Positions 20,721-48,284 of a stretch of 64,000 bases of DNA are shown here, piece by piece. The stretch's first letter is position 1. Every line of letters starts with the position of its first letter. Source of the DNA: an uncultured Thermodesulfobacteriota bacterium (GTDB taxonomy: Bacteria > Desulfobacterota > WTBG01); assembly GCA_964580455.1 (NCBI GenBank), contig CAZOKO010000001.1, forward strand, positions 2,992 through 66,991, given 5' to 3'. The notes beneath the pieces are model-generated. The model was not told the origin of the DNA, did not search any database, and worked only from the letters and a program-made list of their open reading frames with translations. A program made the position numbers and the translations under genes.

Positions 20721-20850
20721 CTATCTATTCCTGTCAATTACCCACTAAACAAGCTTCACTCATTGATCTGTGCAATCTACTGGTAGTGCCGACTCTGATG
20801 CATGTAAATAACTGCCCCTTGCAGCAGCATCCACCCGCATTAAAAAACCA

Positions 20851-22843: not shown

Positions 22844-22931
22844 GTATTCTTCTTGCAGAATCTGGAAATCTCTGTCTAATCCAAAAAACGGTATTGTATA
22901 GTCGATTATTTGTGAAATAGCACTACCTCCT

Positions 22932-23573
22932 CTATTTGTTCATGCGAATAAGCTTGGCGGGAACTCCAGCCACTACTTCGTGATCCTTAACATCCTCCGT
23001 AACAACCGCTCCCGCAGCAACAACACAATTGCTGCCGATGGTGATCTTCGGTATTACAGTAGCTCCGGTATAAATATAGGTTTTTTCTCCCACTATCACG
23101 GTACCACCTAAGGAAACACCTGGTGCTATATTACAATAATCCCCTATCTGATTGTCATGCTCAATAACTGATTGTGGATGGATAATTACATGATTGCCAA
23201 CAATAGCATTGGGCTGCAGTGTCGCATGAGGACTAATTATACACCCCCCACCTATCTTACAAAAGGGCGATATTACAGCCCTTGAACTAATACTGTTACC
23301 AAATGAAAATCCATAGTTTGATAACAATTTAACCGCCTTACTCTTTTTCTCCATATCTCCATGTGCTACAATTATCTTTATCTCACTGGTTGAAAATCGT
23401 TTAGTTACTTCTTCAATTCCACATAAAACTTCTACACCGTTTATGTTCGTACCAATCATCAGGCCGGTCTCCATATCAACCGCCCCGATAATATCGTAAT
23501 TCTTATCAATACAAACACTATCTATTACATAACGAGCCTGAGAACCACACCCAATGATCAGAAGTCTGTGCAT
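22932..23573 (-). CDS. PglD/NeuD/WbpD-type sugar N-acetyltransferase (left-handed β-helix)
   Basis: N-terminal Rossmann-like …LLIIGCGSQARYVID… and C-terminal hexapeptide repeats (…IGDYCNIAPGVSLGGTV…). Confidence 0.75.
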   Translation of the reverse strand: MHRLLIIGCGSQARYVIDSVCIDKNYDIIGAVDMETGLMIGTNINGVEVLCGIEEVTKRFSTSEIKIIVAHGDMEKKSKAVKLLSNYGFSFGNSISSRAVISPFCKIGGGCIISPHATLQPNAIVGNHVIIHPQSVIEHDNQIGDYCNIAPGVSLGGTVIVGEKTYIYTGATVIPKITIGSNCVVAAGAVVTEDVKDHEVVAGVPAKLIRMNK

Positions 23574-23581
23574 GTTTTCTC

Positions 23582-24562
23582 CTAACCTTTAGTTATTCGA
23601 AAAGCCTCTTCCAGGTATTCAGCATATTTTACTATCCCCTCCTCGAGATCGTGCGTAGGTAAATATCCCAAAAGAGTCTTAGCCTTTTCAATATCCAACG
23701 CTCCCCTATCAGGACGAAAGCTGTCACCTTCAACATAGTCAATCTCACTATTGGGATACACTGCCATGATAACCTCCAGCAGTTCTTTAAGGGTTCTGCC
23801 CCTTCCCCTGGTTATATTAAAAACCTGGTTGTGGGCTTTCTCCGAAAAGGTAACCAACTTTATCCCTTTGGCTACATCTTCGACAAAGGAAAAATCCAGA
23901 ACTGTCTGTTCTGCGTTCTTTGCTCTAATCTTCTCCCCTTTTACCGCATTGGTCAGAAAAATTCCAACCACTCTTCTATTGTTGTCAGTAGGACCATATA
24001 TTGCGGATGGCCTCACAATTGAATAAGGCATGTCATACCGCTGAGAATACACTTTCACCATATATTCTCCCGCCAGTTTCATTCCTCCATAAATCTCTTT
24101 AGGTTCTTTTGCACAATCTTCCGGTATCGGGACTTTTTTGAAATCTCCATACACCATACTTGAAGAGATGTACACGAATCTGGAAAGATAATTTCCATCA
24201 CGCAAAACCTCTAGAAGGTTTACCGTACCCCCCACGATAGTGCCAAACGCTTCCTCACTATACTCTATAGCCATATTCGCCAAAGGTAAAGCCGCGAAAT
24301 GAACCACAAGCTCCGGCTTTATACTTGAGAACTTTCTTCTCAACTCATCTTTGTTATTGGTATTGCACCTTACTACCTCAGCATTATTTATAAGCTTTTC
24401 AAACCTGTAATTAATATTATACGCATAGAGAGGTTTGATAGGAGGGAGTATATATTGATTAAACGCATCTAATACAAAAACATCATGGCCCTCTTCCGTA
24501 AGTATTTTTACCAGATGTGAACCAACAAAACCTGCTCCTCCGGTAACTACTACTCTGGACAT
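23582..24562 (-). CDS. NAD-dependent nucleotide-sugar epimerase/dehydratase (SDR)
   Basis: TGGAGFVGSHL Rossmann motif and YxxxK region. It is adjacent to the aminotransferase/acetyltransferase pair. Confidence 0.7.
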   Translation of the reverse strand: MSRVVVTGGAGFVGSHLVKILTEEGHDVFVLDAFNQYILPPIKPLYAYNINYRFEKLINNAEVVRCNTNNKDELRRKFSSIKPELVVHFAALPLANMAIEYSEEAFGTIVGGTVNLLEVLRDGNYLSRFVYISSSMVYGDFKKVPIPEDCAKEPKEIYGGMKLAGEYMVKVYSQRYDMPYSIVRPSAIYGPTDNNRRVVGIFLTNAVKGEKIRAKNAEQTVLDFSFVEDVAKGIKLVTFSEKAHNQVFNITRGRGRTLKELLEVIMAVYPNSEIDYVEGDSFRPDRGALDIEKAKTLLGYLPTHDLEEGIVKYAEYLEEAFRITKG

Positions 24563-24564
24563 TC

Positions 24565-25500
24565 TTACCCCCTTTGTAGAAGTTTATTGATAAATTTAAA
24601 CCACTTATCTATTCTTATATTTAACAATGATATAATTCTTAACGCACAACGCAAAGCACTTTTGCCCTCATTTAATTTTACATATGCTCTTATCATATCA
24701 TATAATATTTTCGACTCAGCCTCAGGATATGGCTTAAAATCTTCCCGGAATTTAGACAATCTCATCATGGCTGATTTTATATGATTTCTCAAACTCTCTT
24801 TTGAATTAACGCCTATTCTGTCTAAGTGTCCTATATGTACCTTGCACAGTATCTCGGAAACGTAATCCACCTCAAAATGCTTCGCAATTCTCCGGATAAA
24901 GTCTCCATCATTACCCCTGGGAAGTTCTTCGTCGAAGTATCCGACCTTGTTAATTACCTCTCGTTTTATGATAATGGTAGGACATCCACCAATTGCCTGT
25001 CTGTCTAGCATTTCAACAAAAACATTTCCGCGAAGCTTCGGAGCGCACACGTTAATAGACTTTCCATTATGGAAATATTCCATCCACGCATACACTAGCC
25101 CCGTTTCCGGTGAAGAGTTTTCAATAATTGGCATCTGCACTTCCAGTTTATTGACCGTCCATTCATCATCGTCATCTAAAAAAGCAATGTATTCCCCCTT
25201 GCTAGCCTTTATTCCAGTATTTCTTGCCGCTGATGCTCCTTTTGATGTGTCGTGCTTGAAAAAACGAATCCGAGGGTCATCATATGAGGCAATGACTTCA
25301 TCGGTGTTGTCGGTTGAGCCGTCTGAAACAATGATCAGTTCAAAATCTTCGTAGTTCTGCCTCAGGACACTGTCGACAGCACGGTGAAGCATTTCCTCCC
25401 GATTGTGAGTCGGGATTATAACACTGACATGAGGCAAAGTATTTGCATTTGAAGTTTTTGAATCATTCCTCATAGAATACGCCTGAATAGATTTACACAC
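24565..25500 (-). CDS. family 2 glycosyltransferase
   Basis: …VSVIIPTHNR…ELIIVSDGSTDNT…. Confidence 0.75.
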   Translation of the reverse strand: MCKSIQAYSMRNDSKTSNANTLPHVSVIIPTHNREEMLHRAVDSVLRQNYEDFELIIVSDGSTDNTDEVIASYDDPRIRFFKHDTSKGASAARNTGIKASKGEYIAFLDDDDEWTVNKLEVQMPIIENSSPETGLVYAWMEYFHNGKSINVCAPKLRGNVFVEMLDRQAIGGCPTIIIKREVINKVGYFDEELPRGNDGDFIRRIAKHFEVDYVSEILCKVHIGHLDRIGVNSKESLRNHIKSAMMRLSKFREDFKPYPEAESKILYDMIRAYVKLNEGKSALRCALRIISLLNIRIDKWFKFINKLLQRG

Positions 25501-26333
25501 TGCAGATAGTTGGCTAGGAATAATAAATGAATTTTCTTCAGAAATGTAAGGTCTTTTGCCTTAAGGCAATCAAGTTGTGGTAGCCAATTTCTCCACGAAA
25601 TGCGACCGTGAGCTAGCAAACCTAACTGCTCAAGTTTTTTCTGTCCGATAGCGATCCGTTTTGATTTCTTACGGATTTTACTGAATGTTGAACGGGCTGG
25701 ATGCTTTACGATGGCGTCTGGAATGTAAATGAGTTTTTCGTTTTTCTGGGTGAGGCGCCGTCCAAACTCATAGTCACCTCCGGATATCAAGTCGTTGCGA
25801 AATAGACCGTACGTCTCGAAAAGACGACGTGTAGAAAAAAAATTGGCGGTCGCACCAAATCCAGCGCTTTGCACAAAAGCTTTTTGATTCAATTTTCGTT
25901 TCGAATCGAAATATTCGTACACATTAGGCTGGTCACTTTCAAAAAAAAAGGAGATGTGTCCCGCGCCGCATGTCGCGTTCTCCCGTTTAAGTGCTCGCAA
26001 CCCAGCCTCTATCCATTGTGGTTCAGGAACACAGTCAGAATCTGTAAAAGCCAATATTTTACCTTTAGCTACTTGTATTCCCTTATTTCGTGCGGCATAT
26101 GAACTCTGAATCTCATCTTCGATTACCATGTGAATGAACTGACGATAATTGCGGCAGTACCACTTAACTGTGTTTTGCGTATCATCATTGGAACCGTTAT
26201 CAGCAACAATGACTTCAAAATTATTTTTAGAATACGTCTGATGAAGCAATGCCTCAAGACACACATTGATATTTTGCGCGTCATTGTAAACCGGAACGAT
26301 GATCGATGCAACAAGAGACATGAAATATAACAC
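25470..26333 (-). CDS. family 2 glycosyltransferase
   Basis: …SIIVPVYND…EVIVADNGSNDDT…. Confidence 0.75.
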   Translation of the reverse strand: MLYFMSLVASIIVPVYNDAQNINVCLEALLHQTYSKNNFEVIVADNGSNDDTQNTVKWYCRNYRQFIHMVIEDEIQSSYAARNKGIQVAKGKILAFTDSDCVPEPQWIEAGLRALKRENATCGAGHISFFFESDQPNVYEYFDSKRKLNQKAFVQSAGFGATANFFSTRRLFETYGLFRNDLISGGDYEFGRRLTQKNEKLIYIPDAIVKHPARSTFSKIRKKSKRIAIGQKKLEQLGLLAHGRISWRNWLPQLDCLKAKDLTFLKKIHLLFLANYLQCVNLFRRIL

Positions 26334-26343: not shown

Positions 26344-27513
26344 TTAAATATTCATCTCTATCTTCTCCAGGAAATCCAAGGGAAGTCTTGTAATTTCGTA
26401 GATACGAGCCGTGTGTGTCACAGGGTCTTCATTATTTCTGCTCATCATATAAGTATTTTTATCAAAACAATACTCAAATTGCTTAGAAATCCAGTACCGG
26501 GCATCTTCAACATTCTGTCCTTTTTCTCCATCCAGCAGCACATACTTTGAAAACGGCACCTCGAATCCCGGAGGATTATAGGGAAATCCGAATTTGTTGT
26601 CGTTTAAACCATTTATATATTCTTCGGACTCAAGGAAATCTATACATTTTTTGAAAGAATCTGACTGCCAGAACGGGTGCTCAGGAATCTGTTCTTTTAA
26701 TATGCCAAAGGCATAGGTGTTAAAAGCATGATAGCCTATAGATTTATACACCATCTTCTTGTGTTTTTTTTTCTCCTGTTGTTCACCTGTCAAATAGCTA
26801 TCTGAAAAAAACACCTTCCTAAAAATTGTATTCGCGTTTTTGATAAACCGCTTTATATTTGCTTCGAGATTGTATTCTTTTCCTTGTTGACCATCAATAA
26901 GATGATCAATAGGATGATAAATCAATCCGTTATCCATAACTGCGAGGTTGCGGCTCAGGCAATCCATAAAACGGTTGATTCTTTGAATGATGGTACTTCT
27001 TTGCTGTCCCTTATGTAGCGAAGCACAGGCTGCAAACCAGAGTTGATGATTAAAAGTTGCGTCAAATCTGAAGATCTCGCCATCAATTTCGAGCCTGTTC
27101 CACAGCCCAAAGTCGCTATTAAAAGGATGTTGGAAAAAGACCTGCTCGGCCAACTCTGAATATTTCTCGTGCCCCAGGCAAGCCGCCGCCTTCGCCAACG
27201 CTTCGAAAGTCCACGCCTGGCCGATCAGACCATTGCACTTGTCCTTTCCCGTCTTGTTTCGATGATGAAAAGAATAACCGTGGGGCCGAGCTTCTTCGGA
27301 GCAAATATACGCTACGAGATCTCGTACAGTGTCACAGTACTTGATTTGGCCCGTCCATTCAAAAACGTTTGCGAAGGTAATCAACCAGTGAGCCCGATTG
27401 CGGACGGGCGTTTCGGGGTCATGGTAGGGCCCGTTATGTCCCGCGCGAATGAACTCGTTCGGATTCTCCAGTGCCTTGTCGGCTATCTGTACAAGTATAT
27501 CAGCAATATACAT
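26344..27513 (-). CDS. putative polysaccharide lyase/epimerase-like (α/α)-toroid protein (NHxxW motif)
   Basis: 389-aa soluble protein with no confident family match by eye. It contains …ATFNHQLWFAAC…, which resembles the catalytic N-H-x-x-W signature of alginate-lyase/heparinase-II/III-type folds. This is a weak assignment. Confidence 0.3.
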   Translation of the reverse strand: MYIADILVQIADKALENPNEFIRAGHNGPYHDPETPVRNRAHWLITFANVFEWTGQIKYCDTVRDLVAYICSEEARPHGYSFHHRNKTGKDKCNGLIGQAWTFEALAKAAACLGHEKYSELAEQVFFQHPFNSDFGLWNRLEIDGEIFRFDATFNHQLWFAACASLHKGQQRSTIIQRINRFMDCLSRNLAVMDNGLIYHPIDHLIDGQQGKEYNLEANIKRFIKNANTIFRKVFFSDSYLTGEQQEKKKHKKMVYKSIGYHAFNTYAFGILKEQIPEHPFWQSDSFKKCIDFLESEEYINGLNDNKFGFPYNPPGFEVPFSKYVLLDGEKGQNVEDARYWISKQFEYCFDKNTYMMSRNNEDPVTHTARIYEITRLPLDFLEKIEMNI

Positions 27514-27637: not shown

Positions 27638-28486
27638 CTATATGCGACGACAGACATGAATCTTTTCATGCTTATGAATGCCATAACGGGTGATGGTCTC
27701 ACTAGGCAACTTCGCTGCAAAATCATCCAGCACTACCTCAAAACCCGCCTTACGAAGAAGATTCACAAAATCAGGTCCGTAGCGACGAACATGGTCTGGA
27801 TGCCCAAAGTGCGCGGCACGTGTTTCTGGTGTCGTAATGGTCTTATCTTCTATGATTTGTTCTGCCCAAATTGGAACCTGAATAATAGCTCTTCCTGTTG
27901 GTCTTAAAATACGGCAAAGCTCTTGTGCTGCTTTGAAATCGTCCTGGATATGCTCAAGGACATGATAGCAAAGAATAAAATCAAGCGAAGCGTCATCAAA
28001 TTTCAAATCAGTGATATCCATTAAGTGCGTAGGGTTTCGGTGTGGGGTAATGTCAATCGATACGTAGTCGATATCCGCATCATGGAAAAAGGCATTATAA
28101 ATAAACCTATTTGGTGCAATATCTAATACTCGTGCGCCTGGCTTTAAAATGTTTGGTTTATCTTTTAAATAAAACCATAATAAACGGTGCCGCTCACCAG
28201 CGCCGCAATTGGGACACAAGGCGTTGGCGACACAGATCCAATCCATGGCCAATAAACGTTTTCCATCGTCACTTTGCCAAAATGGTCGGTCCAGAGCCCC
28301 GGAGGGACGGAAACGATCAAACGACATCCCACAAAACGGGCACTCCACGTTATCCCCGGCGTATATTTTAATTCGGCGCCGGCGTTGATATTCTCGCCGA
28401 GCCTTTTGGGTAGAATTCAACACTGGTTTTAAAACAAATTTGGCCAAATTTTTGGGTAATCCCATATCCCGTGCTACTCCCCGCAA
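27638..28486 (-). CDS. class I SAM-dependent methyltransferase with N-terminal CxxC…CxxC zinc-ribbon
   Basis: CPFCG…CPNCG motif followed by the SAM motif I region (…GARVLDIAPN…) and a Methyltransf_11/23-like body. Confidence 0.6.
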   Translation of the reverse strand: MRGVARDMGLPKNLAKFVLKPVLNSTQKARREYQRRRRIKIYAGDNVECPFCGMSFDRFRPSGALDRPFWQSDDGKRLLAMDWICVANALCPNCGAGERHRLLWFYLKDKPNILKPGARVLDIAPNRFIYNAFFHDADIDYVSIDITPHRNPTHLMDITDLKFDDASLDFILCYHVLEHIQDDFKAAQELCRILRPTGRAIIQVPIWAEQIIEDKTITTPETRAAHFGHPDHVRRYGPDFVNLLRKAGFEVVLDDFAAKLPSETITRYGIHKHEKIHVCRRI

Positions 28487-30651
28487 TGAGTAATTTGTCG
28501 CTCAACTTCTAACGCGATATGTGCGGCACATAGTTGATGTTGCAAGCTGATAGGCCATTGGCTCTCTGTTTTCACAGCTCGAGCAAAAGCGGCGATTTCA
28601 GCGAAGTGCCCTTTGTCACCTGAATATTTCTGTCGTTTGTTTTGTGGGCCGAAAAATTCTAATTCCTCATAATCGTTCATGACAAGCACAGATTCGTCAA
28701 GATATCCACGCATATGTTCTTTAGGATAGGTTTTATGTCCCAATGTTGTGTAGGTCAAAGTTGCCAGGGAACCATCAGTAAATGATATCGTCGCAGTAAA
28801 GTTTTCGTTCGGGCTATGATCATTACCTGAAACACCAGCGTGGCTCACGGTAATGCTTCGTGGAACACTATCGATTAAATATAAAAATAAATCATAAATA
28901 TGACAGGCCTCGCCAAGATTGCGTCCACCGCCTTCTTCTGTACGAAGCCAATGGTCAGGGGAGAGTGCTCCGGAGTTTACCTCATAATTAATAATAACGG
29001 GAGACTGACGTTCTTGTATGATCGATTTGGCATCAACCATGAGTTGAGAAAATCGCCGGTTATACCCCGTCATAAGCATGGGCTTGTTTTTGGTGTTATC
29101 CTGATAGAAGGCCTTAATTTGGTCCAATTCATCCATCGTCAAAGCCAATGGTTTTTCCACAAATACGTTCTTTCCGGTCTGGAGGGCCTTCAGGGTCATT
29201 TTGGCGTGTAAATTGTGGCGCGTGCCGATAATGATAGCATCCAGTTCTGCGTCTTGCAGCAACTCGTCGTACGAGGTGGTGGCATAGTCAGCGCCGTACT
29301 GTTCGGCCACTTGCATGGCAGTGGCCCCGGTGCGGCTCATCACCGCGGCCAGGCGCACCTCACCCTCCAAACTTTTGAGCGCGGGCAGATGGACCCGTTT
29401 GGTAAATCGGCCAGCACCGGCCATGGCCACCCGAATGATTCCCCCGGTTGCTTTTGGTCGGATCTGAACCAGGTCTACGCGGGTTCGCCTTTTCTCGGTC
29501 AGAAGTTTATCGTCAGGATATTTGATAAAGATGGCACAGGGTCTATCGGTGCCATCTTTTAGGCGTTGGTAGGCTTCAGGCGCGACATCCAGAGGGAACT
29601 CTTCAGTCATCAGGGCCAAGTCCAGCTTTTCTTCGGCCAGCAAGCGCAGATATTCCTCCATGTTGCGCTTTTCAGTCCAGCGGACGTAGGCGTAGGGGTA
29701 ATCCAGTCCTTTCTCCTCATAGCGCTCGTCGTAGCGCCCCGGCCCGTAGGAGATTGAAGCCAAGAAATCTATCTCCTTACGCAAAAAAGGATTCTTTTGA
29801 ATGTTCATAGGAACTAAGCCGACCACAACCACCCGACCCTTCTGGCGCGTGATCTCCATGGCTGTCTGCACAATCTCGTCGCTTTGAGAGGCCGCCGTGA
29901 TCAGGCAGACATCAACTCCCATGTGTTTGGTAAAGCGATTGACCGGCCATTGAACTTTATCAGGGTCAGCATACGCTTCGTCAATGTCCAGCTCCTTGGC
30001 TCGCTCGACCTGTGTCGGGTCTATGTCGAAGCCGATCACTCGGGCGCCAGATAACTTTAACAGTTGTACGCTGATTAGACCCACCAACCCCAGGCCAATG
30101 ACGGCCACTGATTCACCCAGATGAATTTCGGCCCGGCGCACGCCCTGCATAGCAACAGCCCCCACCGCTACCGAGGCCGCGTTCTTCATGTCGGCCTGCG
30201 GAGGGATCATGGTGACCAGATTCTCGGGGACGACGACGAGTTCAGAGTGAGTGGCTTTGTTTGCTCCGGCGCAGGCCACCCGGTCGCCCGGCTGAAATAG
30301 GGTCACCCCCGACCCGACCGCTACCACCCGGCCCGAACAGGAATAGCCGATGGAGACCATTGGCCTAGTGGATGAGTCCTTTGGCCCTAAGTAGTCGAAC
30401 ACAGTAGATACAGTTTTCTTAACCCCGTGATTGCGCAGGTAGTTGATCAGTTTGTTGATCAAGGCCGGATTCTGGGCCATACGTGTAACCAGACCGGGTG
30501 GCTGTGATCCCATTGCTTCCAGCGTGGCCATCTCCGTACCAGTGCTAATCAAAGAATACGCCACCTCAACCAATATGTGTCCAGGTTGAAGCAGCGGCGA
30601 TGGCACTTCAATAACTTTCGCACCATTCACGGTAGAGAAAACTTGCTTCAT
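28474..30651 (-). CDS. fusion protein: N-terminal MDR (alcohol-dehydrogenase-like) domain + C-terminal Gfo/Idh/MocA oxidoreductase
   Basis: Residues 1–340 have an MDR Rossmann (…VAVIGLGLVGL…). Residues ~390–725 are a Gfo/Idh/MocA NAD-binding region (…RVAMAGAGRFT…) with its α/β C-terminal domain. Confidence 0.65.
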   Translation of the reverse strand: MKQVFSTVNGAKVIEVPSPLLQPGHILVEVAYSLISTGTEMATLEAMGSQPPGLVTRMAQNPALINKLINYLRNHGVKKTVSTVFDYLGPKDSSTRPMVSIGYSCSGRVVAVGSGVTLFQPGDRVACAGANKATHSELVVVPENLVTMIPPQADMKNAASVAVGAVAMQGVRRAEIHLGESVAVIGLGLVGLISVQLLKLSGARVIGFDIDPTQVERAKELDIDEAYADPDKVQWPVNRFTKHMGVDVCLITAASQSDEIVQTAMEITRQKGRVVVVGLVPMNIQKNPFLRKEIDFLASISYGPGRYDERYEEKGLDYPYAYVRWTEKRNMEEYLRLLAEEKLDLALMTEEFPLDVAPEAYQRLKDGTDRPCAIFIKYPDDKLLTEKRRTRVDLVQIRPKATGGIIRVAMAGAGRFTKRVHLPALKSLEGEVRLAAVMSRTGATAMQVAEQYGADYATTSYDELLQDAELDAIIIGTRHNLHAKMTLKALQTGKNVFVEKPLALTMDELDQIKAFYQDNTKNKPMLMTGYNRRFSQLMVDAKSIIQERQSPVIINYEVNSGALSPDHWLRTEEGGGRNLGEACHIYDLFLYLIDSVPRSITVSHAGVSGNDHSPNENFTATISFTDGSLATLTYTTLGHKTYPKEHMRGYLDESVLVMNDYEELEFFGPQNKRQKYSGDKGHFAEIAAFARAVKTESQWPISLQHQLCAAHIALEVERQITHCGE

Positions 30652-31673
30652 TAAGACTCCTCTTCAGAAAAAGGTCCAAAATTATCAATCGCATACTGAT
30701 AAATCTCCAGATCTGGTTTACATATTGCTCTAACCCTTTCCCCAACTTCAGGTGTAACCGATCTCCGATACGAATCTGATATAGGGTTTTTCTTTTTGTG
30801 GGGAACTTTCAGTTTAAATCCAAAACGATCTTCAAATTTTCTCTGGAAATCTTCTAAATGCTCTGTAAACCCTATGATCTCAAATTTGTGCAGATTTGCC
30901 TTTGCTCTATATATCGCTGGTTGAGAAGCATAGTCCTCTCCCTTTCTAACACCGCCCAGATATGCCACATACTGATGTCCAAGATGCTTTGCTCTTTCTG
31001 ATTGTAGAAAGGTCATTATATCTTCATCTGTTCTTCCATAATCACGATGTACAAACCTGATGTAAAGGTAAGTTGAAAACCATCTTTCCACAGGATCCCG
31101 CAAGCAGGTAATAAACTTATACTTGCTGCCAAACTCACTATACGCTACTTTACTGAACGGGATGTGACCACTAATGAACTTTATTTTCTTGCCCATGAGG
31201 TACAAAAGCAAAAGCTCGCGATATTTTGGCACGTAGTAAGTCTCAGCCTCATCTGCAAAGTTATCTAATTCCTGATAAAAGGATTTTGCAGCTCTAAATG
31301 AAGGTGCTGAAGCAATGGTATAATTGGAAAAAGGAAACCATCTTTTAATTGCATCATCAATCGAAGTTCCCCCACACTTATGAATGTGTAAGAAGAAAAG
31401 GTCGGGGAAGTCATTATAGTATAGGTTCAGAGCTCTTTTCATGGGACTGTGTAAAAAAAGAACTCTATCTAAATTCCGATAACATATGCCCACCAAACGG
31501 GCACCCCATTTTACCATAGGCTTGACAATCCAATTCTGAATTTCTGTCATTTGGACACCCTTTCCATGATGACATTTATCATGTACGTAGAAGATAGCTG
31601 ATTTAAAAGATGGTATTAAGACACGTCCAGTCTCTGGTTTGTCGAAAGAACGCGTGCTATATACTTCTGCCAT
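30651..31673 (-). CDS. putative carbohydrate sulfotransferase (Sulfotransfer_2/3-like)
   Basis: 5'-PSB-like motif FLHIHKCGGTSI (compare HIPKTGGT) and 3'-PB-like motif CLRDPVERWFSTYLY (compare RDPxxRxxSxY) with the right spacing. Length 340 aa. Confidence 0.55.
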   Translation of the reverse strand: MAEVYSTRSFDKPETGRVLIPSFKSAIFYVHDKCHHGKGVQMTEIQNWIVKPMVKWGARLVGICYRNLDRVLFLHSPMKRALNLYYNDFPDLFFLHIHKCGGTSIDDAIKRWFPFSNYTIASAPSFRAAKSFYQELDNFADEAETYYVPKYRELLLLYLMGKKIKFISGHIPFSKVAYSEFGSKYKFITCLRDPVERWFSTYLYIRFVHRDYGRTDEDIMTFLQSERAKHLGHQYVAYLGGVRKGEDYASQPAIYRAKANLHKFEIIGFTEHLEDFQRKFEDRFGFKLKVPHKKKNPISDSYRRSVTPEVGERVRAICKPDLEIYQYAIDNFGPFSEEES

Positions 31674-32675
31674 TCATGATACTTTGATATCGGTTAGGTT
31701 AGTAATGATTCTTTCTGCTAGGGCAATCTGCTCTTTAGAGGTTAGGTCACTCTGCCTGAAACTACGAATATGAAATCCGAAAGGAGCACCCTTCCATATA
31801 AATTCTTCCCAGCCATACATGGTCGCGTCTACATAGCCACGCTCACGAAATCCATTGCGTGTATAGTATTCTGGCCGCTTTGGAAGATAACTAAAGCGAT
31901 CAGGAAGCAATTTATTAAGGATCCTATTACTCGCTCGTTGAAAGACTTGTACAGAATCTTCAGAACTAGGTCTGTAAACTGGTTGGAGGCACTCAAAGCG
32001 AATCCTGGAAGACCAGTGATATCTACGGTAGATACGATATCCGGTATCTGGTTGCGTTCCGACTTGTATTCGGTGCTTCAGATCGTCAGCGAATCGGAAA
32101 CCCAAACGGACACTACAGCGCGTGAGTGCTAGAAGGAAGTATTGCAAGATTTGTGATTGCAGTCGGTGTTCCTCTTTGTCATTCTGTTCTCCGGGTCTGA
32201 AGTCCAATGTCCCTATGTTAATCCGCTCTAGATCGATAAAGAGGCAGTGTACACAAGGAAAGTAGCGGTATTTTCTGATCCATTGTGGATGCCAAGGAGC
32301 ACCAAAGAAGGCCAGGTCGTTCGCTTTCATATACCGAATGACATCATCAATCCATTTCTGCCGCACAATGTAGAAATCCGGATCAAGAAATACCAAGAAC
32401 CTAGTATCCACGAATTTGATAGCCTTGTTCAGAGCAGCGCCATGGTGGTAGCTAGCTGGCGCCCACTTGTTGGCGTCCTTCTCATAACCGTTTAGAACGT
32501 GGAAATGATCGGAACTGAGATTCAAAGCGTCCAGTGACCCAGGTGGCGTATTCTCAACGACCAACCACGCTATCTTGTGGGAATGATTTAAGAGCGTCGT
32601 TAACTCCCAGTTCAGCTCAAGATGCTTCTTGCTATGAAATGATACTGAACATATTGTCAGGCTAGATTCGTACAT
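31674..32675 (-). CDS. putative GT-A-like glycosyltransferase (unassigned family)
   Basis: …FLVFLDPDFYIV… DXD-like motif in an α/β context. No confident family assignment. Confidence 0.3.
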   Translation of the reverse strand: MYESSLTICSVSFHSKKHLELNWELTTLLNHSHKIAWLVVENTPPGSLDALNLSSDHFHVLNGYEKDANKWAPASYHHGAALNKAIKFVDTRFLVFLDPDFYIVRQKWIDDVIRYMKANDLAFFGAPWHPQWIRKYRYFPCVHCLFIDLERINIGTLDFRPGEQNDKEEHRLQSQILQYFLLALTRCSVRLGFRFADDLKHRIQVGTQPDTGYRIYRRYHWSSRIRFECLQPVYRPSSEDSVQVFQRASNRILNKLLPDRFSYLPKRPEYYTRNGFRERGYVDATMYGWEEFIWKGAPFGFHIRSFRQSDLTSKEQIALAERIITNLTDIKVS

Positions 32676-32728
32676 AAATGGATTCCTTAGTAACCCATGA
32701 AAGCTAACTTCATAACATCCTATTCCAA

Positions 32729-33820
32729 CTACTCACTACGAATGCCAACAAGATGCCGATAACTATAGATAGACCGAGATGATTGGTTGCCGCGTAACAG
32801 CTTACGAACAAAGCTCCTTACGAATCGCCTGACTGAGACCCTGCCATGATCAGGCCCAGTATCTATAACTGTATATGGAACGTCCAACACTTTTACTCTC
32901 GTCAAATCATAGTATCGAGATAGGACAGAGCTCACTGTAGTAAGCTGCGAATTATATCGAGACCTCTCCCGGTTTAAACTGTAGAGGTTGGGACACTCTA
33001 ACTGATAAACCTTTCGCACATAATGATCGACCAACTCGGTGGTCATCTCTTGGAACGAAACCATGTTGATAGTCAAGTCAAGCTGCTCCACCCGGATGTC
33101 ATCCAGGAAGTAATGCGGCAAAAAGATAAAGTCATAGGATTTATAATCTTTCAGAAGGGTTGCCATTGGTCCATCACCGTATGTAAGTACGGAAGCGGAT
33201 GGGAATAACGTTCTTAGATAGACAGCAGAGAAAAGTAATGTCTGAGGTAAATCTATGATGATGTAAGTAATGTTCGGACACAATGTCTTGAACTGATAAG
33301 CAAATCCCCCCCACCCAGCGCCAATCTCCATGACGACCTTCTTCCCCTTCCCTGAGTTGGCGCGAAATTGCGCAAGCAGCCCTGCTTTGCTCAAGGCGAT
33401 CAAAGACTCGTAGTATTTTAACGTGTCAACGTTGAACAGAGCACCATCAATTAGGTGGCCAAATCCCCCAAGTAGTGGAGACTCAGACACCAGCAAATTG
33501 CTGTCATCTTGTTGTCGCAGTACCTGCAACTTTCTGGCAAATGCTTCTCGCTGATGTGTATGATGGCCCCGATAGTCGAAGACGCGCACTCCGGTTAGGT
33601 GATAGCAATGATGCCTCAGCTTTTCGATTATTAGGGGAGAAGCATCAAGCATGTACTCAAAGCCTGCCAGTTCCTCTTCCCAATAATTGCTGAGATTGTC
33701 GGTGTGAGCAGCGACATGGTTTATCATCTTAAATACGACTTCACGTACTTCAAGGTAAATGCGATACTCTCTACTTCGTCTGGCATTCTCTACAGAATCC
33801 ACTAAAGCACTATATCTCAT
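32729..33820 (-). CDS. class I SAM-dependent methyltransferase with ~150-aa N-terminal extension
   Basis: Motif I VVMEIGAGWGGFAYQF and a downstream acidic motif. Confidence 0.55.
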   Translation of the reverse strand: MRYSALVDSVENARRSREYRIYLEVREVVFKMINHVAAHTDNLSNYWEEELAGFEYMLDASPLIIEKLRHHCYHLTGVRVFDYRGHHTHQREAFARKLQVLRQQDDSNLLVSESPLLGGFGHLIDGALFNVDTLKYYESLIALSKAGLLAQFRANSGKGKKVVMEIGAGWGGFAYQFKTLCPNITYIIIDLPQTLLFSAVYLRTLFPSASVLTYGDGPMATLLKDYKSYDFIFLPHYFLDDIRVEQLDLTINMVSFQEMTTELVDHYVRKVYQLECPNLYSLNRERSRYNSQLTTVSSVLSRYYDLTRVKVLDVPYTVIDTGPDHGRVSVRRFVRSFVRKLLRGNQSSRSIYSYRHLVGIRSE

Positions 33821-33846
33821 TAAGACCCTCCATCATCATTCTTGCG

Positions 33847-34569
33847 CTACTTCACACGACGCAGCCACCCGTATTGGTGAAACGAAAATAGATTTCGCCG
33901 CCATAGCTTGTCATCTCGAACAAAGTTGCTGTTGTTTCTTAAGAACTCGTTTACTGCTTCAAGTGGACCAGGTCCGAAATCAGGGACAACAGGGTGTCCG
34001 TTAATATTCGTGTCCTCCACAACAAGGTAACAACCCACATCAACAAATCGGCTATATATTTCAAGTTCTCTTAAGACGTGTTCATAACTGTGATCCGAGT
34101 CCAATGACACCAGCCCATTTTGTGTGGTGAGAAGGTCTTCTACAGACTCAACCGTTTTGGCATCAACCGAGTCTCCCTCTATTAGGTGGATTCTTGAATG
34201 GCTGAGACTTCTAGCTTCAGCGGTAGTTTCAATATCTATACCTATCACTATTGCGTCTGCATCAGCACCGATCAAGTCCAAGATGTGCGCAAAGTATAGG
34301 ATTGAACCTCCATACGCTACACCTGTCTGCAAGATAAAGGCTGGCCTCTCATGATGTATGAGTTCTTGATAGAGCAAGAGGTCAAATGGCAGCTGTCTTA
34401 TTGGGTATCCGAGATATTTGTTCTTCCTCCAGCCCCTGGTATTATAGTATAGGCGATGGAATCTATCTATGACTATTCTATCGATTAGTCGAAATATATT
34501 GGAACTCAGACGAGACAACCTCATGTCTGCCAACCGTGGTTTTGTTTTCATATTTAGAATATACCTCAC
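33847..34569 (-). CDS. CmcI-family (cephalosporin hydroxylase/rhamnosyl O-methyltransferase-like) methyltransferase
   Basis: …[26 protein letters not shown]… matches the CmcI (PF04989) core. Confidence 0.6.
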
Positions 34570-34668
34570 TCACTCCTATCCTAGAGCAATAGTATTCCCT
34601 GGCAAGAACGGGCGCACTATACTCCAGAGCAGTCAGTCTCCTCCTTGGTCAGGATTTGGTGGCTCGGC

Positions 34669-35307
34669 TCAGGTAATTGACATGGATTTCTTAACAAGTA
34701 TAGCATTTAACAATGTTGGAAATAGAGCACAGGAATACTTACTACTCACAAGACCAAACCTCCGCATAATGCGCATAATCACAGTTGGGGCAAATATTTC
34801 CTGACGAGCGAGGTTGGCAGTGAGAGGTAACCTTTCCCCTCTGATTTTTGTGTAATAAAAGGACCTATCCTCTACTAGCTCACATTCAGGGAATAGAACT
34901 GATAAGGAAGCTGGGGTAAATCTCCAATAATCATCGGGAAATGTATGAATTTCCCAGACAAAAGGAACACTTATGAATATCACTCCTCTCTCGGCAAGGA
35001 ATCTACTAATATTCTCTGCCATCTTAAGTGGATACTTGCAATGCTCTAGGACACTAAAACAAATTACAGTCTTAAACTTTTCAATCCCCATTTTGTTTTT
35101 TATCAATTCATAATCCGAAGTAAAATCACAAACAACATCAACGCCTTTACCCGGTTCCTGATCAACCCCTATGTAGGTTTCGGTCTTAAATAATTGTCTG
35201 AAGTCATTTGCATTTCCGTACTGTTTGCTTCCTACCTCCAAAATATGCCCTTCAACCATATGACGATTCTCAATTACGAAATCTAGTTGGTTTTGGTGTC
35301 CCGACAT
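34669..35307 (-). CDS. class I SAM-dependent methyltransferase
   Basis: Motif I ILEVGSKQYGN. Start placed at the ATG forming a TAATG overlap with the wzt stop (35305–35309). The longer ORF-track start would overlap wzt by 73 bp. Confidence 0.6.
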   Translation of the reverse strand: MSGHQNQLDFVIENRHMVEGHILEVGSKQYGNANDFRQLFKTETYIGVDQEPGKGVDVVCDFTSDYELIKNKMGIEKFKTVICFSVLEHCKYPLKMAENISRFLAERGVIFISVPFVWEIHTFPDDYWRFTPASLSVLFPECELVEDRSFYYTKIRGERLPLTANLARQEIFAPTVIMRIMRRFGLVSSKYSCALFPTLLNAILVKKSMSIT

Positions 35308-36611
35308 TAGCTTAGCTCCTGTCTTTTGGTAATCCATTGTAAGAGCGGGCGAACCACTCCGGGCATCTCTCCCCCCCAATCGCCACGCGCGGAATTGCCA
35401 CTAGCATTATCCACTATCTGAAAGGCTATAACGTCTTGCTCACGTACATGCTTGACAGTCGGACTTATCGTGCTGATCCCAGCGAAAACAAACACGGTCC
35501 CTTCCGCCATGAGATTGGCGGGTATCCAGGCCATAGTGGTATAACATCCTGTGGGTCGAGGCTGTTGACGCCATTCAGGGTCTGTGTCTATGGCAGTGAA
35601 GATTACCATACCATACTGGTTGGTGAGACGAAAAACCGGTGTGAGTACGACATCAGGCTTGAGCACATTGTACCGCATTACGAGTGCAAAAGGTCGGCAA
35701 ATATCAATCGCTTCACTTACCTTTCCATCTTCGTTCTGGACGTACACAGCTCGTAATCGAACTATATCGTCACCCGGTGCATTGTTGAGTTTACGCCATT
35801 CTCGCTTTGCCACAGTACCTAGATCAGACTGAAGATAGGTAGCTACAACCTGTTGAGAAGGCCCATCTTGTATAACCTGACCCTCATTCAACAATATCGT
35901 GCGTTGACACAGTCGAGTAATAGACGGCATACTGTGAGAGACAAACAACACCGTCCGTCCGCCTACTCCGATCTCACCCATCTTCTCCAAGCATTTCTTC
36001 TGAAAGCGGATATCCCCCACTGCCAGCACTTCATCCACTAGCAATATCTCCGGCTCCAAGTGGGCTGCCACAGCAAAGGCTAGGCGCACATACATACCGC
36101 TGGAATAGTACTTCACTGGTGTGTCTACGAACTTCTCGAGCTCAGCAAAGGCCACGATCTCGTCGAACTTGCGGTCGATCTCGTCCCGTTTCATCCCCAG
36201 GATGGCGCCGCTGAGATAGACATTCTCCCGCCCGGTCAGCTCGGGGTGGAAGCCAGTGCCCACCTCCAGCAAGCTGCCCACCCTCCCGTGGATCTCAGCA
36301 CGGCCTTCGGTCGGCTCGGTGATGCGGGAGAGGATCTTGAGCAGCGTGGTCTTGCCCATCCCGTTGCGTCCAATGATGCCTACAACTTCGCCATGTTTAA
36401 CCTCGAATGAGACGTCCTTAAGTGCCCAGATGAAGTTAGTTGATGGCTGATGGCTCGTGGCTGATGGCCGATGGTCGGTTCTTCTAGCCCGACGGCGGAA
36501 AGGTGAAGAGAAGGCATTCGCTATGCTCTCCCGAAGAGTCTTATAGCCTACAAACTGACCTACACGATAAAGCTTACCTAAGTTTTCTGCTTTGATGGCG
36601 ATGTTGCTCAT
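35307..36611 (-). CDS. wzt: ABC transporter ATP-binding protein Wzt/KpsT-type with C-terminal carbohydrate-binding extension
   Basis: TagH/Wzt-type N-terminus (MSNIAIKAENLGKLYRV…), Walker A GRNGMGKTT, signature YSSGM, Walker B LLVDEVLAVGD. A ~170-aa C-terminal non-ABC extension fits the Wzt_C β-sandwich described for O-antigen terminal-cap recognition. Confidence 0.75.
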   Translation of the reverse strand: MSNIAIKAENLGKLYRVGQFVGYKTLRESIANAFSSPFRRRARRTDHRPSATSHQPSTNFIWALKDVSFEVKHGEVVGIIGRNGMGKTTLLKILSRITEPTEGRAEIHGRVGSLLEVGTGFHPELTGRENVYLSGAILGMKRDEIDRKFDEIVAFAELEKFVDTPVKYYSSGMYVRLAFAVAAHLEPEILLVDEVLAVGDIRFQKKCLEKMGEIGVGGRTVLFVSHSMPSITRLCQRTILLNEGQVIQDGPSQQVVATYLQSDLGTVAKREWRKLNNAPGDDIVRLRAVYVQNEDGKVSEAIDICRPFALVMRYNVLKPDVVLTPVFRLTNQYGMVIFTAIDTDPEWRQQPRPTGCYTTMAWIPANLMAEGTVFVFAGISTISPTVKHVREQDVIAFQIVDNASGNSARGDWGGEMPGVVRPLLQWITKRQELS

Positions 36612-37003
36612 GGATTATCCTTGATAGGAGACCGATGACCGTGGACGGGAACACCTAAAGCTTTCCGAAAAGCTTGCAATTTAACAAAAATCTCGTGCCC
36701 AAATTCCCTTATTTCCATAAGTAAATCACTGGATAAATAGTCTCGTCGTTCTATGATATCCAAACATGCTATTGTCTCCAAATAGGATCTCAAAGCCAAT
36801 CCAAGAAAACGGTTCTGCTCTGCATTGGTTTGTCCAGTTGAACCCTCTGCAATATTCAGCACGACAGAAGTTGCTGCTCGCTCTAATTGGTTCCGTAGAT
36901 TGAATCGCTCTGAGACAGGTAGCTTGCTTGAACACCCATATATTTTGTCAACATAATCCAAAGCCAAACGGTAAACATCCAGACGCTGAAACTTGTATTT
37001 CAT
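36608..37003 (-). CDS. four-helix-bundle protein (23S rRNA intervening-sequence protein/Avd-like, TIGR02436-type)
   Basis: KYKFQRLDVYRLALDY…LPVSERFNLRNQLERAATSVVLNIAEG… is typical of the family. Start set at ATG 37003, which has a GGAGGA Shine-Dalgarno 6 nt upstream. The stop overlaps the wzt start by 4 bp. Confidence 0.7.
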   Translation of the reverse strand: MKYKFQRLDVYRLALDYVDKIYGCSSKLPVSERFNLRNQLERAATSVVLNIAEGSTGQTNAEQNRFLGLALRSYLETIACLDIIERRDYLSSDLLMEIREFGHEIFVKLQAFRKALGVPVHGHRSPIKDNP

Positions 37004-37041
37004 ATATCCTCCGTTTCCAGTCTCTTGTCTCCTGTCTGCTT

Positions 37042-37899
37042 TCATATCACATCAGCAAAGGTTCTTTCACTACGTCGGAAATAAAACGCCCCTGAAATCA
37101 ATACCACTATTACAATTATAACAGAGATGGCCATCAAAGAGCCAGGCGGCGCTTTACCTAAAAGAGCCCAGCGGAAACCCTCAATTACTCCAGCCATGGG
37201 ATTAAATCCATATATTATTTGAAATTTCTCTGGCAGGAGGCTCGATGAATAAACCACTGGCGATGCAAAAAGCCATAGTTGAATTACAAATGGTATTACA
37301 TAGCGCACATCGCGATATCTTACATTTATTGCCGAGAGCCATAGGCCCACTCCTAAAGCAGTCATCAACGTTAGAAGGATAAATGCTGGCAACCAGAGTA
37401 TTTGGATAGTGGGAGGATAACCATAATAAAACATCATACCGATCAAAATAGTAAAGGCGATAGCAAAGTCAACCAGAGGGGAGAGGATACCAGAAAGGGG
37501 CATAACCAGCCTGGGGAAATATACTTTCCGAACGAGATTAGCATCCTGAACAAGGATGTTGCTTGAACGTGTTATGCCTTCAGCAAATAAGGTCCAGGGA
37601 AGCAATGCAGCATAATTAAACAGTGGATATGGGACCCCCTCTGAAGGAACTTTCGCCAGGTTGCCGAAGAATAGAGTAAATACTACCATCATAAAAAAGG
37701 GCTGGATAATTGCCCAAGCAGCACCCAGGAGTGTTTGCTTATAGCGTACTTTAATCTCCCGCCAGGTGAGAAAATACATCAGTTCGCGATAGATCCATAA
37801 ATCCCTTAAGTTTATTGGTATCCAACCCCTTGTGGGACGAATAACCACCATAGGCAATGAATTTATATTTGATTCACGCTTAAAGATATTCGCTTTCAT
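37042..37899 (-). CDS. wzm: ABC-2 type polysaccharide export permease Wzm/KpsM-like
   Basis: 285 aa with six predicted TM segments and ABC-2 family features. It lies immediately upstream of wzt. Confidence 0.75.
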   Translation of the reverse strand: MKANIFKRESNINSLPMVVIRPTRGWIPINLRDLWIYRELMYFLTWREIKVRYKQTLLGAAWAIIQPFFMMVVFTLFFGNLAKVPSEGVPYPLFNYAALLPWTLFAEGITRSSNILVQDANLVRKVYFPRLVMPLSGILSPLVDFAIAFTILIGMMFYYGYPPTIQILWLPAFILLTLMTALGVGLWLSAINVRYRDVRYVIPFVIQLWLFASPVVYSSSLLPEKFQIIYGFNPMAGVIEGFRWALLGKAPPGSLMAISVIIVIVVLISGAFYFRRSERTFADVI

Positions 37900-37966: not shown

Positions 37967-38908
<942 letters not shown>

Positions 38909-39027: not shown

Positions 39028-40158
39028 TCATCTCTCAATCAACCTGTTCTCTGCCCAGCGAATGCCATGTTTCTGCAATATCTTTTTCCCATCACCTTTA
39101 GGGGTGAGACCGGTAGATTCCACATCTGCATCTATCATTATCTTTACCAAGTCCTCAAACATCACTTTAGGTTCCCAATCCAATCTTTTTCTGGCTTTAG
39201 AAGTATCGGCAAGAAGATACCCTACCTCGGTAGGCCTAAAGTAGCGAGGGTCAATTTCGACAACAACATCTCCATGTTTAATATTTAACACACCCCTTTC
39301 TACTTCTTTGACAATTCCTTTTTCACCAAGACCGCTTACCTGCCATGCTATCTCAATACCTGCGTAACTAAAAGCAAGCTCCACAAACTCCTTTACTGAG
39401 TGACTTTCACCCGTACCAATTACATAATCATCAGGCTCATCCTGTTGCAAGATAAGTCTCATACATTCAACATACTCTGGAGCAAATCCCCAGTCTCTTT
39501 TGGCCTCTAAGTTACCCAGATAGAGTTTCTTTTGCTTTCCTGCAAGAATATTAGCTATAGCTCTGGTAATTTTTCTGGTAACGAAAGTTTCTCCCCTCCT
39601 TGGGCTTTCATGGTTGAACAGTATCCCATTGCAGGCAAACATTTTATATCCTTCTCTGTAATTTACTACCATCCAATAGGCATAGAGCTTTGCACAAGCA
39701 TAAGGACTTCTCGGTTTAAAAGAGGTATCTTCATTCTGGGGAGGAGACGAGGTACCAAATATCTCCGAAGAGGAGGCTTGATAAAATTTCGTCTTGGTAC
39801 CACTCCTCCTTAAGGCCTCAAGTAATCTTATGGTTCCAAGAGCTGAAATATCTCCTGTATACTCTGGCATGTCAAAACTTACTCGAACATGGCTTTGCGC
39901 ACCCAAATGATATATTTCATCTGGCTCAATGTTATAAATAATATTAGTAATCTGTTCGGCATTTGATAAGTCCCCATAATGGAGAAAGAGTCTTGCATTC
40001 GGCGTGTGAGGATCAACATAAATATGTTCAATTCTCTCAGTGTTAAATGTGCTTGCCCTCCTTATAATTCCATGGACTTCATACCCTTTTGATAAAAGAA
40101 GTTCAGCAAGATATGAACCATCTTGACCAGTAATACCGGTAATGAGAGCCTTTTTCAT
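39028..40158 (-). CDS. gmd: GDP-mannose 4,6-dehydratase
   Basis: Classical Gmd N-terminus [22 protein letters not shown] and a 376-aa length. Confidence 0.88.
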
Positions 40159-41376: not shown

Positions 41377-41501
41377 TACATTTTCATCTCATTATTCAAT
41401 TGGATATTTAAAGCTTTTATTACTTCTGGAAATAATACCTAATATGATAACCACGAAACACACGAAGAGTAGCCACAGATTACACAGATTTTCACAGAAT
41501 T

Positions 41502-42818: not shown

Positions 42819-42821
42819 ACA

Positions 42822-48209: not shown

Positions 48210-48284
48210 ATCCTATTACCCCTCTACTTTTGACTCTATTATTTAAACCTAACGGGATATTCTGGATTATTCTCTTCAAGACTT

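Follow-up and report, generated by a model that had tools for sequence, protein, structure and literature searches.

The window analysed here is a 64,000-nucleotide stretch of DNA from an uncultured Thermodesulfobacteriota bacterium (GTDB lineage Bacteria; Desulfobacterota; WTBG01), corresponding to positions 2,992 to 66,991 of contig CAZOKO010000001.1 in assembly GCA_964580455.1. As judged from open reading frames (ORFs) and family annotation, it carries a single minus-strand run of genes that spans from about 40158 down to 19809, in which a predicted Wzm/Wzt ATP-binding cassette (ABC) exporter is followed by methyltransferases, a glycosyltransferase (GT) and a sulfotransferase. Families were assigned with Pfam and NCBIfam/TIGRFAM profiles against the cut-off of each model. 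The exporter and the genes closest to it in the argument are, in order of transcription:

39028..40158, minus strand: gmd, GDP-mannose 4,6-dehydratase, heading the run (TIGR01472 548 bits, cut-off 415; PF16363 487 bits)
37967..38905, minus strand: fcl-like GDP-4-keto-6-deoxymannose epimerase/reductase (best NCBIfam match GDP-L-fucose synthase, 295 bits against an equivalog cut-off of 500 bits)
37042..37899, minus strand: wzm, ABC-2 permease (PF01061 79.7 bits)
35307..36611, minus strand: wzt, 434 aa, with ABC_tran at residues 64-195 followed by a C-terminal extension of about 170 aa
35826..36611, minus strand: predicted nucleotide-binding domain of Wzt, residues 1-262 (PF00005 82 bits; PDB 8dku, E-value 8.5e-65)
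35307..35825, minus strand: predicted C-terminal carbohydrate-binding domain of Wzt, residues ~263-434, and stop codon (AlphaFold2 model and Foldseek)
34669..35307, minus strand: MT23, putative class I S-adenosylmethionine (SAM) methyltransferase, 212 aa (PF13489 Methyltransf_23 28.5 bits, cut-off 27)
33847..34551, minus strand: methyltransferase of the CmcI/rhamnosyl-O-methyltransferase family (PF04989 RMNT_CmcI 180.7 bits, cut-off 23.2)
32729..33820, minus strand: NanM-type putative sugar O-methyltransferase, 363 aa (TIGR04371 106.3 bits, cut-off 44; no Pfam match)
31674..32675, minus strand: predicted GT-A fold glycosyltransferase (Pfam GT2 23.0 bits, cut-off 23.3; fold from an AlphaFold2 model)
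30651..31550, minus strand: putative sulfotransferase of the Sulfotransfer_2 family, of the type dependent on 3′-phosphoadenosine-5′-phosphosulfate (PAPS), gene call of 299 aa (PF03567 23.8 bits, cut-off 22)

A sequence-only reading of this region had named a Wzt, four methyltransferases, a sulfotransferase, a GT-A-like protein and a dehydrogenase fusion, and all of these were recovered at or near the positions it gave, the four methyltransferases being distinct from one another (Methyltransf_11, NanM-type, CmcI and Methyltransf_23 matches). Its orientation has to be reversed, as on the minus strand the methyltransferases and the sulfotransferase lie transcriptionally downstream of wzt, with gmd and fcl upstream. 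Its naming of gmd holds at equivalog level, whereas for fcl the best match is the right one but falls below the cut-off. The product of the two enzymes is predicted from their assigned families to be a GDP-6-deoxyhexose, and probably GDP-L-fucose. Copies of the locus with identical sequence are present on contigs of 100-106 kb from several environmental metagenomes. Promoter and terminator scans across 19-39 kb were no better than with shuffled sequence and are uninformative on operon boundaries.

The top PDB sequence match to the nucleotide-binding domain of Wzt is the Wzt of Aquifex aeolicus (8dku). Matches to the models for galactan-export Wzt/RfbE and for TagH have E-values of 1e-53 to 1e-58 and are below the equivalog cut-offs. 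With a Wzt/TagH-type domain encoded beside an ABC-2 permease, the pair is by its sequence an ABC exporter of the Wzm/Wzt O-polysaccharide type. The C-terminal extension was also searched against the Pfam Wzt_C profile (PF14524), a check in which it missed the gathering cut-off (19.9 bits against 30.4, E-value 7.8e-4). Homologues of Wzt residues 253-434 were collected (29 proteins, giving alignment A1 of 30 sequences), and these make up a clearly delimited subfamily whose motifs are IPxNLxxEG, GxSARGD and GVVRPLLxW; a precomputed PF14524 match is on record for 12 of the 29. Since the Pfam match is sub-threshold, the assignment of the extension rests on structure prediction. The AlphaFold2 model built on alignment A1 is all-beta and of good quality (predicted local distance difference test score, pLDDT, 88; predicted template modelling score, pTM, 0.81), and in a Foldseek search of the PDB its top 15 matches are all carbohydrate-binding domains of Wzt proteins. 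The leading ones are from A. aeolicus (6o14 and 8dky), E. coli O9a (2r5o) and Raoultella O12 (5hno), with E-values of 4e-7 to 1e-5; 8dl0 is also among the 15, and template modelling (TM) scores on the target reach 0.76. Of these, 8dky is a structure with bound 3-O-methyl-mannose. According to the model, then, the extension is a Wzt-type beta-sandwich carbohydrate-binding domain, as the sequence-only reading had proposed.

Immediately after this domain, the stop codon of wzt overlaps the start codon of MT23 (TAATG, 35305-35309). The ORF of MT23 extends from 34669 to 35379, but translation probably begins at the ATG at 35307, which gives the protein of 212 aa. A homologue of MT23 holds the same position at another locus, L153 (labels of this form denote the comparison loci and contigs gathered for this work, L009-L088 being the 80 binding-domain-subfamily loci described below). 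L153 surfaced in the search with the GT-A protein and encodes the closest binding domain found, 67% identical to that of the window. Its gene order wzm-wzt-MT23-NanM-GT-A is that of the window, with identities of 50, 68, 64, 59 and 46% respectively, and the GT-A gene is followed by a set of NeuB and cytidine monophosphate (CMP)-transferase genes. Neither a sulfotransferase nor a CmcI gene is present in L153. NanM-type homologues of 59% identity adjoin the GT-A family gene in both L153 and L150. On these comparisons the conserved partners of the window's binding domain would be methyltransferases and the GT-A enzyme, and MT23 is a candidate for the terminator methyltransferase. Of the other two methyltransferases between wzt and the GT-A gene, one belongs by profile match to the PF04989 (CmcI) family and the other to the TIGR04371 (NanM-type) subfamily. 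The CmcI-family protein, whose ORF runs over 33847-34569, falls short of the equivalog model for the mycobacterial rhamnosyl O-methyltransferase (NF045824, 142 bits, cut-off 400).

The GT-A protein, although just below the Pfam cut-off, gave an AlphaFold2 model of high quality (pLDDT 90.5), and the GT-A-like fold suggested earlier for it is borne out by this model and its PDB matches. The best PDB match for the N-terminal ~170 residues is the WrtF fucosyltransferase, a GDP-fucose-dependent O-antigen fucosyltransferase of Rhizobium tropici, followed by SpsA, TarP and TarS. In the model the protein has the Rossmann-like GT-A fold together with an Asp-x-Asp motif, D98 and D100 of ‘LDPDF’ being invariant across 45 homologues. 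The family has at least 372 homologues (38-54% identity), and seven of their loci were inspected (L150-L156). Four of the seven have a Wzm/Wzt pair or a wzt gene no further than 5 kb from the GT-A gene, and in three of those four the Wzt is long (422-435 aa), with a Wzt_C match that is clear in L152, faint in L154 and not on record for L153. In L150, L153, L155 and L156, four of the seven loci, the immediate upstream neighbour of the GT-A gene encodes a methyltransferase; in L151 methyltransferases lie upstream at a distance of two or more genes and in L152 and L154 none was seen. These loci fit a module in which a terminal sugar is transferred and then methylated, and the GT-A protein is a candidate transferase for such a sugar. 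It should be mentioned that the family recurs (L151, L152, L153, L155, L156) with NeuB, Hydrolase_3, a short-chain dehydrogenase, an aldehyde dehydrogenase, CTP_transf_3 and a transketolase/DXP-synthase-like protein. This recurrent NeuB/CTP_transf_3 gene set suggests an uncharacterised pathway for a CMP-activated sugar that is tied to the GT-A family.

The company kept by the binding domain was surveyed in a scan of one genome per species with a nine-sequence alignment, which yielded 162 relatives, of which 80 loci were retrieved. The subfamily occurs in Acidobacteriota, Chloroflexota, Nitrospirota and Binatia and also in the methanogenic archaea Methanocellaceae and Methanoregulaceae (examples being L017 and L040). 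Genes of 6-deoxy-sugar pathways dominate the 80 loci (short-chain dehydrogenase/reductase, SDR, 72; RmlC-like, 35; DegT, 18), and a CmcI-like methyltransferase is present in 22, or in 16 of the 41 loci of at least 15 kb. Among 108 downstream ORFs that had no other assignment, Pfam detected Methyltransf_11 in nine and FkbM in three, as well as formyl- and acetyltransferases, but no sulfotransferase family. Sulfotransferases were also sought across the 80 loci with a family HMM and nine seeds (Sulfotransfer_1, _2 and _3), and no confident one was found, the only match being marginal (E-value 2e-4). None of the 80 gave a phmmer match to the sulfotransferase, the NanM-type methyltransferase, the GT-A protein, MT11 or the 389-aa protein of the window (the last two encoded further down the run). 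In many of the loci (for example L012, L016, L023 and L028) the genes after wzt form a module of SDR, RmlC-like cupin, in some cases formyltransferase, CmcI-like methyltransferase, DegT and GT2, which resembles by its families a pathway to a formamido/amino-6-deoxyhexose that includes a CmcI-type enzyme. The enrichment of CmcI in the subfamily was considered as proof of a cap methyltransferase and rejected, as in many loci CmcI sits within an apparent nucleotide-sugar pathway.

In many bacterial surface glycans, chain length is set by cap-dependent export, which acts as a quality control, and to our knowledge only a few cap chemistries (methyl, methyl-phosphate and Kdo) have been shown experimentally. 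In the WbdD-Wzt systems of E. coli O9a and O8 (Klebsiella O3 and O5), export is gated by the binding domain of Wzt and the terminator uses SAM-dependent methylation. The window shares with these Wzm/Wzt and the C-terminal binding domain (2r5o being among its top fold matches), but differs in having no kinase domain and no protein of the size of the WbdD ruler (the latter judged by protein size, not by a coiled-coil predictor). WzmWzt of A. aeolicus (6o14, 8dky, 8dku) provides both the best sequence match for the nucleotide-binding domain and the best fold match for the C-terminal domain, although the binding domains are only ~12% identical in structural alignment and the window adds, beside wzt, a sulfotransferase, a GT-A protein of its own and four methyltransferases. 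The O-antigen of A. aeolicus consists of mannose and 6-deoxyhexose and carries a 3-O-methyl-rhamnose/mannose cap, which is bound by the binding domain of Wzt (PMC9445017). The O-methylated 6-deoxyhexose that had been put forward as part of a different capping chemistry for the window is thus already established in that organism.

The evidence tips slightly towards the window's locus directing Wzm/Wzt-dependent export of a surface glycan on which a conserved terminator block places a methylated cap that is read by the Wzt domain. A cap-and-export system as such is likely here, and by analogy with known systems the cap would most likely consist of methyl groups. The GT2 enzymes, judging from their family, would assemble the glycan cytoplasmically on a lipid carrier, while gmd and the fcl-like gene would provide GDP-6-deoxyhexose. 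The GT-A enzyme would add a terminal residue, which MT23, the NanM-type protein and, in this lineage, the CmcI-family protein would O-methylate, so that the block right after wzt would install an O-methylated sugar at the non-reducing end. The C-terminal beta-sandwich of Wzt would bind this cap and license export, as in A. aeolicus, E. coli O8/O9a and K. pneumoniae. We infer the existence of the cap, its methylation and the sugar that would carry it. The role of the GT-A enzyme and the methyltransferases as a terminator block is proposed because of synteny, translational coupling and co-occurrence. A methylated cap is further favoured because the best structural match of the GT-A protein is a GDP-fucose-dependent fucosyltransferase and gmd/fcl head the operon, and because the stop of wzt overlaps the start of MT23, the order is kept in L153 and methyltransferases rather than sulfotransferases accompany the binding domain in the subfamily loci. 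Of the proposal that had been made from the sequence, the binding domain and the ABC-dependent glycan operon with methyltransferases after wzt, a layout familiar from O-antigen systems that are capped, stand, while the sulfated cap that went with them is not supported.

A number of observations weigh against a methylated cap. A homologue of MT23 is found in just one of the 80 subfamily loci and is weak (23.7 bits), and as NanM is found in none, the notion of a conserved MT23-NanM-GT-A block rests mainly on L153 and L150. The match of WrtF to the GT-A model covers only ~170 residues, with a TM score of ~0.33-0.43, and elsewhere the GT-A family is often found with NeuB, CMP-transferase and transketolase-like genes and not with gmd/fcl. 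Because several of the homologue loci carry CMP-sugar genes instead of gmd/fcl, the donor sugar of the GT-A enzyme in the window is uncertain. Methyltransferases in such loci can also modify internal residues or nucleotide sugars. Finally, a kinase domain was found in none of the 20 ORFs between 19809 and 40158, which agrees with the earlier remark that no WbdD-like kinase is present, and no coiled-coil ‘ruler’ terminator is evident, though no coiled-coil predictor was run. Coiled-coil molecular-ruler terminators are known in WbdD, WbbB and those of K. pneumoniae O4/O7 (PMC11231755). The methyltransferases of the window are all of 363 aa or less and the 725-aa protein is fully spanned by two dehydrogenase domains. 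Terminator functions are apparently split across several small proteins, and chain-length control may differ from the prototypes.

The same lack of a kinase or coiled-coil terminator, within the scope just given, would fit there being no dedicated cap at all, with the methyltransferases and the sulfotransferase decorating repeat units or nucleotide-sugar precursors and the Wzt domain binding a feature of the repeat or an unmodified chain end, or being vestigial. Five modifying enzymes also exceed the normal need of a single cap, and the CmcI-like gene of many subfamily loci lies inside the apparent nucleotide-sugar pathway of SDR, RmlC-like, DegT and formyltransferase genes, as would suit modification of a precursor or repeat unit. 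This explanation is nonetheless rather unlikely, if deserving of some weight, as in all terminated O-polysaccharide examples in the literature consulted the Wzt domain binds a terminal epitope and export is limited to chains that have been terminated (PMC11231755, PMC9445017), and in the window wzt is translationally coupled to a methyltransferase within a wzt-MT-MT-GT block that is kept as a unit in L153.

Two further systems resemble the window in gene organisation. The ‘TET’ operon for Pseudomonas syringae's common polysaccharide antigen (CPA) has the order gmd-rmd-wzm-wzt-O-methyltransferase-glycosyltransferase (PMC7820976), so that GDP-6-deoxyhexose genes, wzm, a Wzt_C-bearing wzt, a methyltransferase and a glycosyltransferase follow each other as they do here. 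It differs in having one methyltransferase instead of four and no sulfotransferase, and in making D-rhamnose via rmd where the window has an fcl-like enzyme. In R. tropici CIAT 899, one operon holds gmd, fcl, wzm and a wzt whose product has a binding domain, and its WrtF is the structure that best matches the GT-A protein of the window; however, WrtF takes part in polymerising the repeat unit and is not a demonstrated terminator (PMC12595478). It is also only 11-14% identical to the GT-A protein in structural alignments, the C-terminal half of the latter being different and larger.

The sulfotransferase gene follows directly on the GT-A gene. Its ORF (30651-31673) probably has an internal real start, giving a protein of 299 or 263 aa, and its stop codon overlaps the start of the dehydrogenase-fusion gene. 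The candidate put forward earlier is upheld by a PF03567 match above the cut-off, by 78 detectable homologues, most with PF03567, and by PAPS-binding and catalytic motifs that are invariant. In an alignment of 32 sequences including the window protein, K58 (HKCGGTS), H129 (SGH), and R151 and S159 (LRDPVERWFS) do not vary, the family forms being HxxKxGGTS, SGH and LRDPVxRxxS. These motifs correspond to the Lys site for the 5′-phosphosulfate, the catalytic His and the Arg/Ser site for the 3′-phosphate. Among PDB entries it matches the heparan sulfate 2-O-sulfotransferase HS2ST (E-value 6e-4), aligned across SGH and RDPVER. With its motifs intact it looks functional, and it is reasonable to regard it as a credible PAPS-dependent, glycan-directed enzyme. 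A gene for PAPS synthesis was not identified among the window ORFs scanned, the scan not having included every ORF.

Three close homologues of the sulfotransferase (in L005, L006 and L007) lie in polysaccharide clusters, each with further sulfotransferases and without Wzm/Wzt. Export genes of the Wzx/Wzy type are present in two of these, namely a Polysacc_synt flippase in L005 and Wzz with Wzy_C in L006, while L007 has a second sulfotransferase. A fourth homologue (L096) is in a cluster that encodes the PAPS synthase CysN/CysC. Here a homologue of the window's 389-aa protein (258 bits) is found at 9197-10309, ~1.9 kb downstream of the sulfotransferase homologue with two genes between, and the two proteins may work together. 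A metagenome scan for relatives of the sulfotransferase gave mostly short contigs, with 22 of at least 8 kb; a Wzt co-occurs on three of these 22, which is a rough rate. Because its motifs are intact and its homologues lie in polysaccharide clusters, the glycan of the window probably carries sulfate somewhere. The enzyme would add sulfate from PAPS, most likely on repeat units, a position that we infer. A comparable case is found in the sulfated capsule loci of marine Cobetia and Vibrio, which have a KpsMT ABC transporter, PAPS genes and a sulfotransferase (PMC11766843) and thus, like the window, a sulfotransferase-bearing glycan cluster on an ABC-transporter export route. They differ in that KpsMT, transporters of group III capsules, lack a binding domain of the Wzt type, that PAPS synthesis genes are in the cluster and that the sulfate is on repeat units.

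A sulfate ester could instead be part of the chain terminator, alone or on a methylated 6-deoxyhexose, with the Wzt domain recognising it and the sulfotransferase serving as terminator or co-terminator, and this was the possibility raised by the sequence-only reading. The gene is indeed in the same tight operon, and the invariant Arg residues of GxSARGD and GVVRP in the binding-domain subfamily could hold an anion. However, the same Arg residues are present in all 80 subfamily loci, in none of which a sulfotransferase was found beyond the one marginal match, and so the neighbourhood check that had been suggested for co-occurrence of sulfotransferase and Wzt_C came out at 0/80 for this subfamily. 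The binding domain of L153 likewise has no sulfotransferase nearby, and the homologues of L005 and L006, in Wzx/Wzy-type clusters beside further sulfotransferases, suggest internal sulfation, with L007 also lacking Wzm/Wzt. That the chain terminator of the window bears a sulfate is therefore improbable, and it is just as doubtful that the sulfotransferase modifies the terminal sugar which the GT-A enzyme would add, so that Wzt reads a sulfated and methylated residue. For the window, the sulfate idea is the less likely reading.

In other organisms a sulfotransferase does directly follow wzt, in three unrelated contigs (L094, L128 and L152), but their binding domains are of other subfamilies, with no detectable similarity to that of the window in L094, weak similarity in L128 and 23% identity in L152. 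In L094 a wzt with Wzt_C (42 bits) is followed by Sulfotransfer_3, and 9 kb beyond it there is a gene homologous to the sulfotransferase of the window. The metagenome contig L128 has in 1340-4739, directly in series, wzm, wzt (422 aa, Wzt_C-like) and a Sulfotransfer_2-like gene, after which come two WavE. The sulfotransferase of L128 has an N-terminal extension of ~100 aa that, judged by eye only, resembles a long helix. It is possible that this protein is a WbdD-style ruler fused to a sulfotransferase, and as such a candidate sulfate terminator. L152 (4438-9047; Bacillota metagenome-assembled genome GCA_040757355.1) has wzm, wzt with Wzt_C, Sulfotransfer_3, adenosine-5′-phosphosulfate (APS) kinase and a homologue of the GT-A protein (43% identity), and from its gene content is an independent case of a binding-domain transporter followed by a sulfation module. 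In Aeromonas salmonicida A450, wzt (438 aa) is also followed by an ORF with a sulfotransferase domain, yet no sulfate was found in the O-antigen (PMC4483657). No description of a sulfate terminator for Wzm/Wzt was met in the literature searched, which did not cover the 2019 terminator census of Mann, Kimber and Whitfield, and the earlier remark that none had been described for Wzt-type systems is to that extent uncontradicted. The sulfate terminator is still a live idea for other binding-domain subfamilies elsewhere. If true at the window, it would give Wzm/Wzt systems their first terminator based on sulfate, and if true of the post-wzt sulfotransferases (L094, L128, L152 and A. salmonicida), these would be an unrecognised class of glycan chain terminators.

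With the methylated cap as the preferred reading, the locus varies a theme that is already known and is distinct in its widespread binding-domain subfamily, its apparently split terminator and its large set of modifying enzymes including a sulfotransferase. It opens an unstudied subfamily of Wzt binding domains, with 162 matches in one scan of representative genomes of bacteria and methanogenic archaea. It also offers a candidate split terminator module of two small methyltransferases and an unnamed GT-A family of at least 372 members, and points in a testable way to the wzt-adjacent sulfotransferases of other organisms.

The rest of the run comprises the following:

36608..37045, minus strand: four-helix-bundle ‘23S rRNA intervening-sequence protein’ gene (PF05635 87 bits; TIGR02436 81.7 bits)
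28474..30651, minus strand: two-domain oxidoreductase, ADH_zinc and GFO_IDH_MocA, 725 aa (PF00107 72.8 bits; PF01408 91.7 bits)
27638..28465, minus strand: MT11, putative class I SAM methyltransferase with a Cys-rich N-terminal segment (PF08241 Methyltransf_11 47.9 bits)
26344..27513, minus strand: 389-aa protein without Pfam or NCBIfam match
19809..26333, minus strand: two GT2, a 4,6-dehydratase/epimerase-like SDR, a NeuD/PglB/VioB-family N-acetyltransferase, a DegT aminotransferase and two further GT2 (family matches)

The genes at 19809..26333 cover polymer assembly and an acetamido-dideoxyhexose pathway. The oxidoreductase also matches a UDP-GlcNAc 3-dehydrogenase-like model (E-value 8e-16) and is probably a sugar or sugar-nucleotide dehydrogenase, and MT11, whose ORF runs over 27638-28486, has homologues in none of the comparison loci. 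Four proteins are from their distribution probably lineage-specific additions, namely the sulfotransferase, MT11, the 389-aa protein and the dehydrogenase fusion, which would most likely decorate or build the sugars of the repeat unit and not define what the binding domain reads. The four-helix-bundle gene occupies the slot between wzm and wzt with a 4-nt overlap at each side. It is absent from L153, has a homologue in one of the 80 subfamily loci and is probably outside the cap and export mechanism.

It is very improbable that the methyltransferases and the sulfotransferase are part of some lipid or small-molecule pathway that has nothing to do with the transporter beyond lying next to it. 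In its favour, MT23 and MT11 match their families weakly and are class I methyltransferases of a generic kind, and enzymes of the B12-radical SAM type are encoded further upstream in the region. Against this, the genes are co-directional with overlaps or short gaps and have sugar-nucleotide and glycosyltransferase genes on both flanks, the NanM and CmcI families are families of sugar O-methyltransferases, and all the neighbourhoods of sulfotransferase and GT-A homologues that were examined are glycan clusters.

Upstream of gmd, three successive nucleotidyltransferase/HEPN gene pairs resembling toxin-antitoxin systems (40650-43256, minus strand) lie between it and further glycan genes and divide the polysaccharide region into two. 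The far part (46086-60293) has two B12-binding radical SAM enzymes (46086-47528 and 58857-60293, minus strand), a radical SAM/SPASM protein (53300-54277, minus strand), a class I methyltransferase (47625-48209, minus strand), and GT2 and GT4 glycosyltransferases. These genes may encode further unusual modifications of the glycan, possibly C-methylation.

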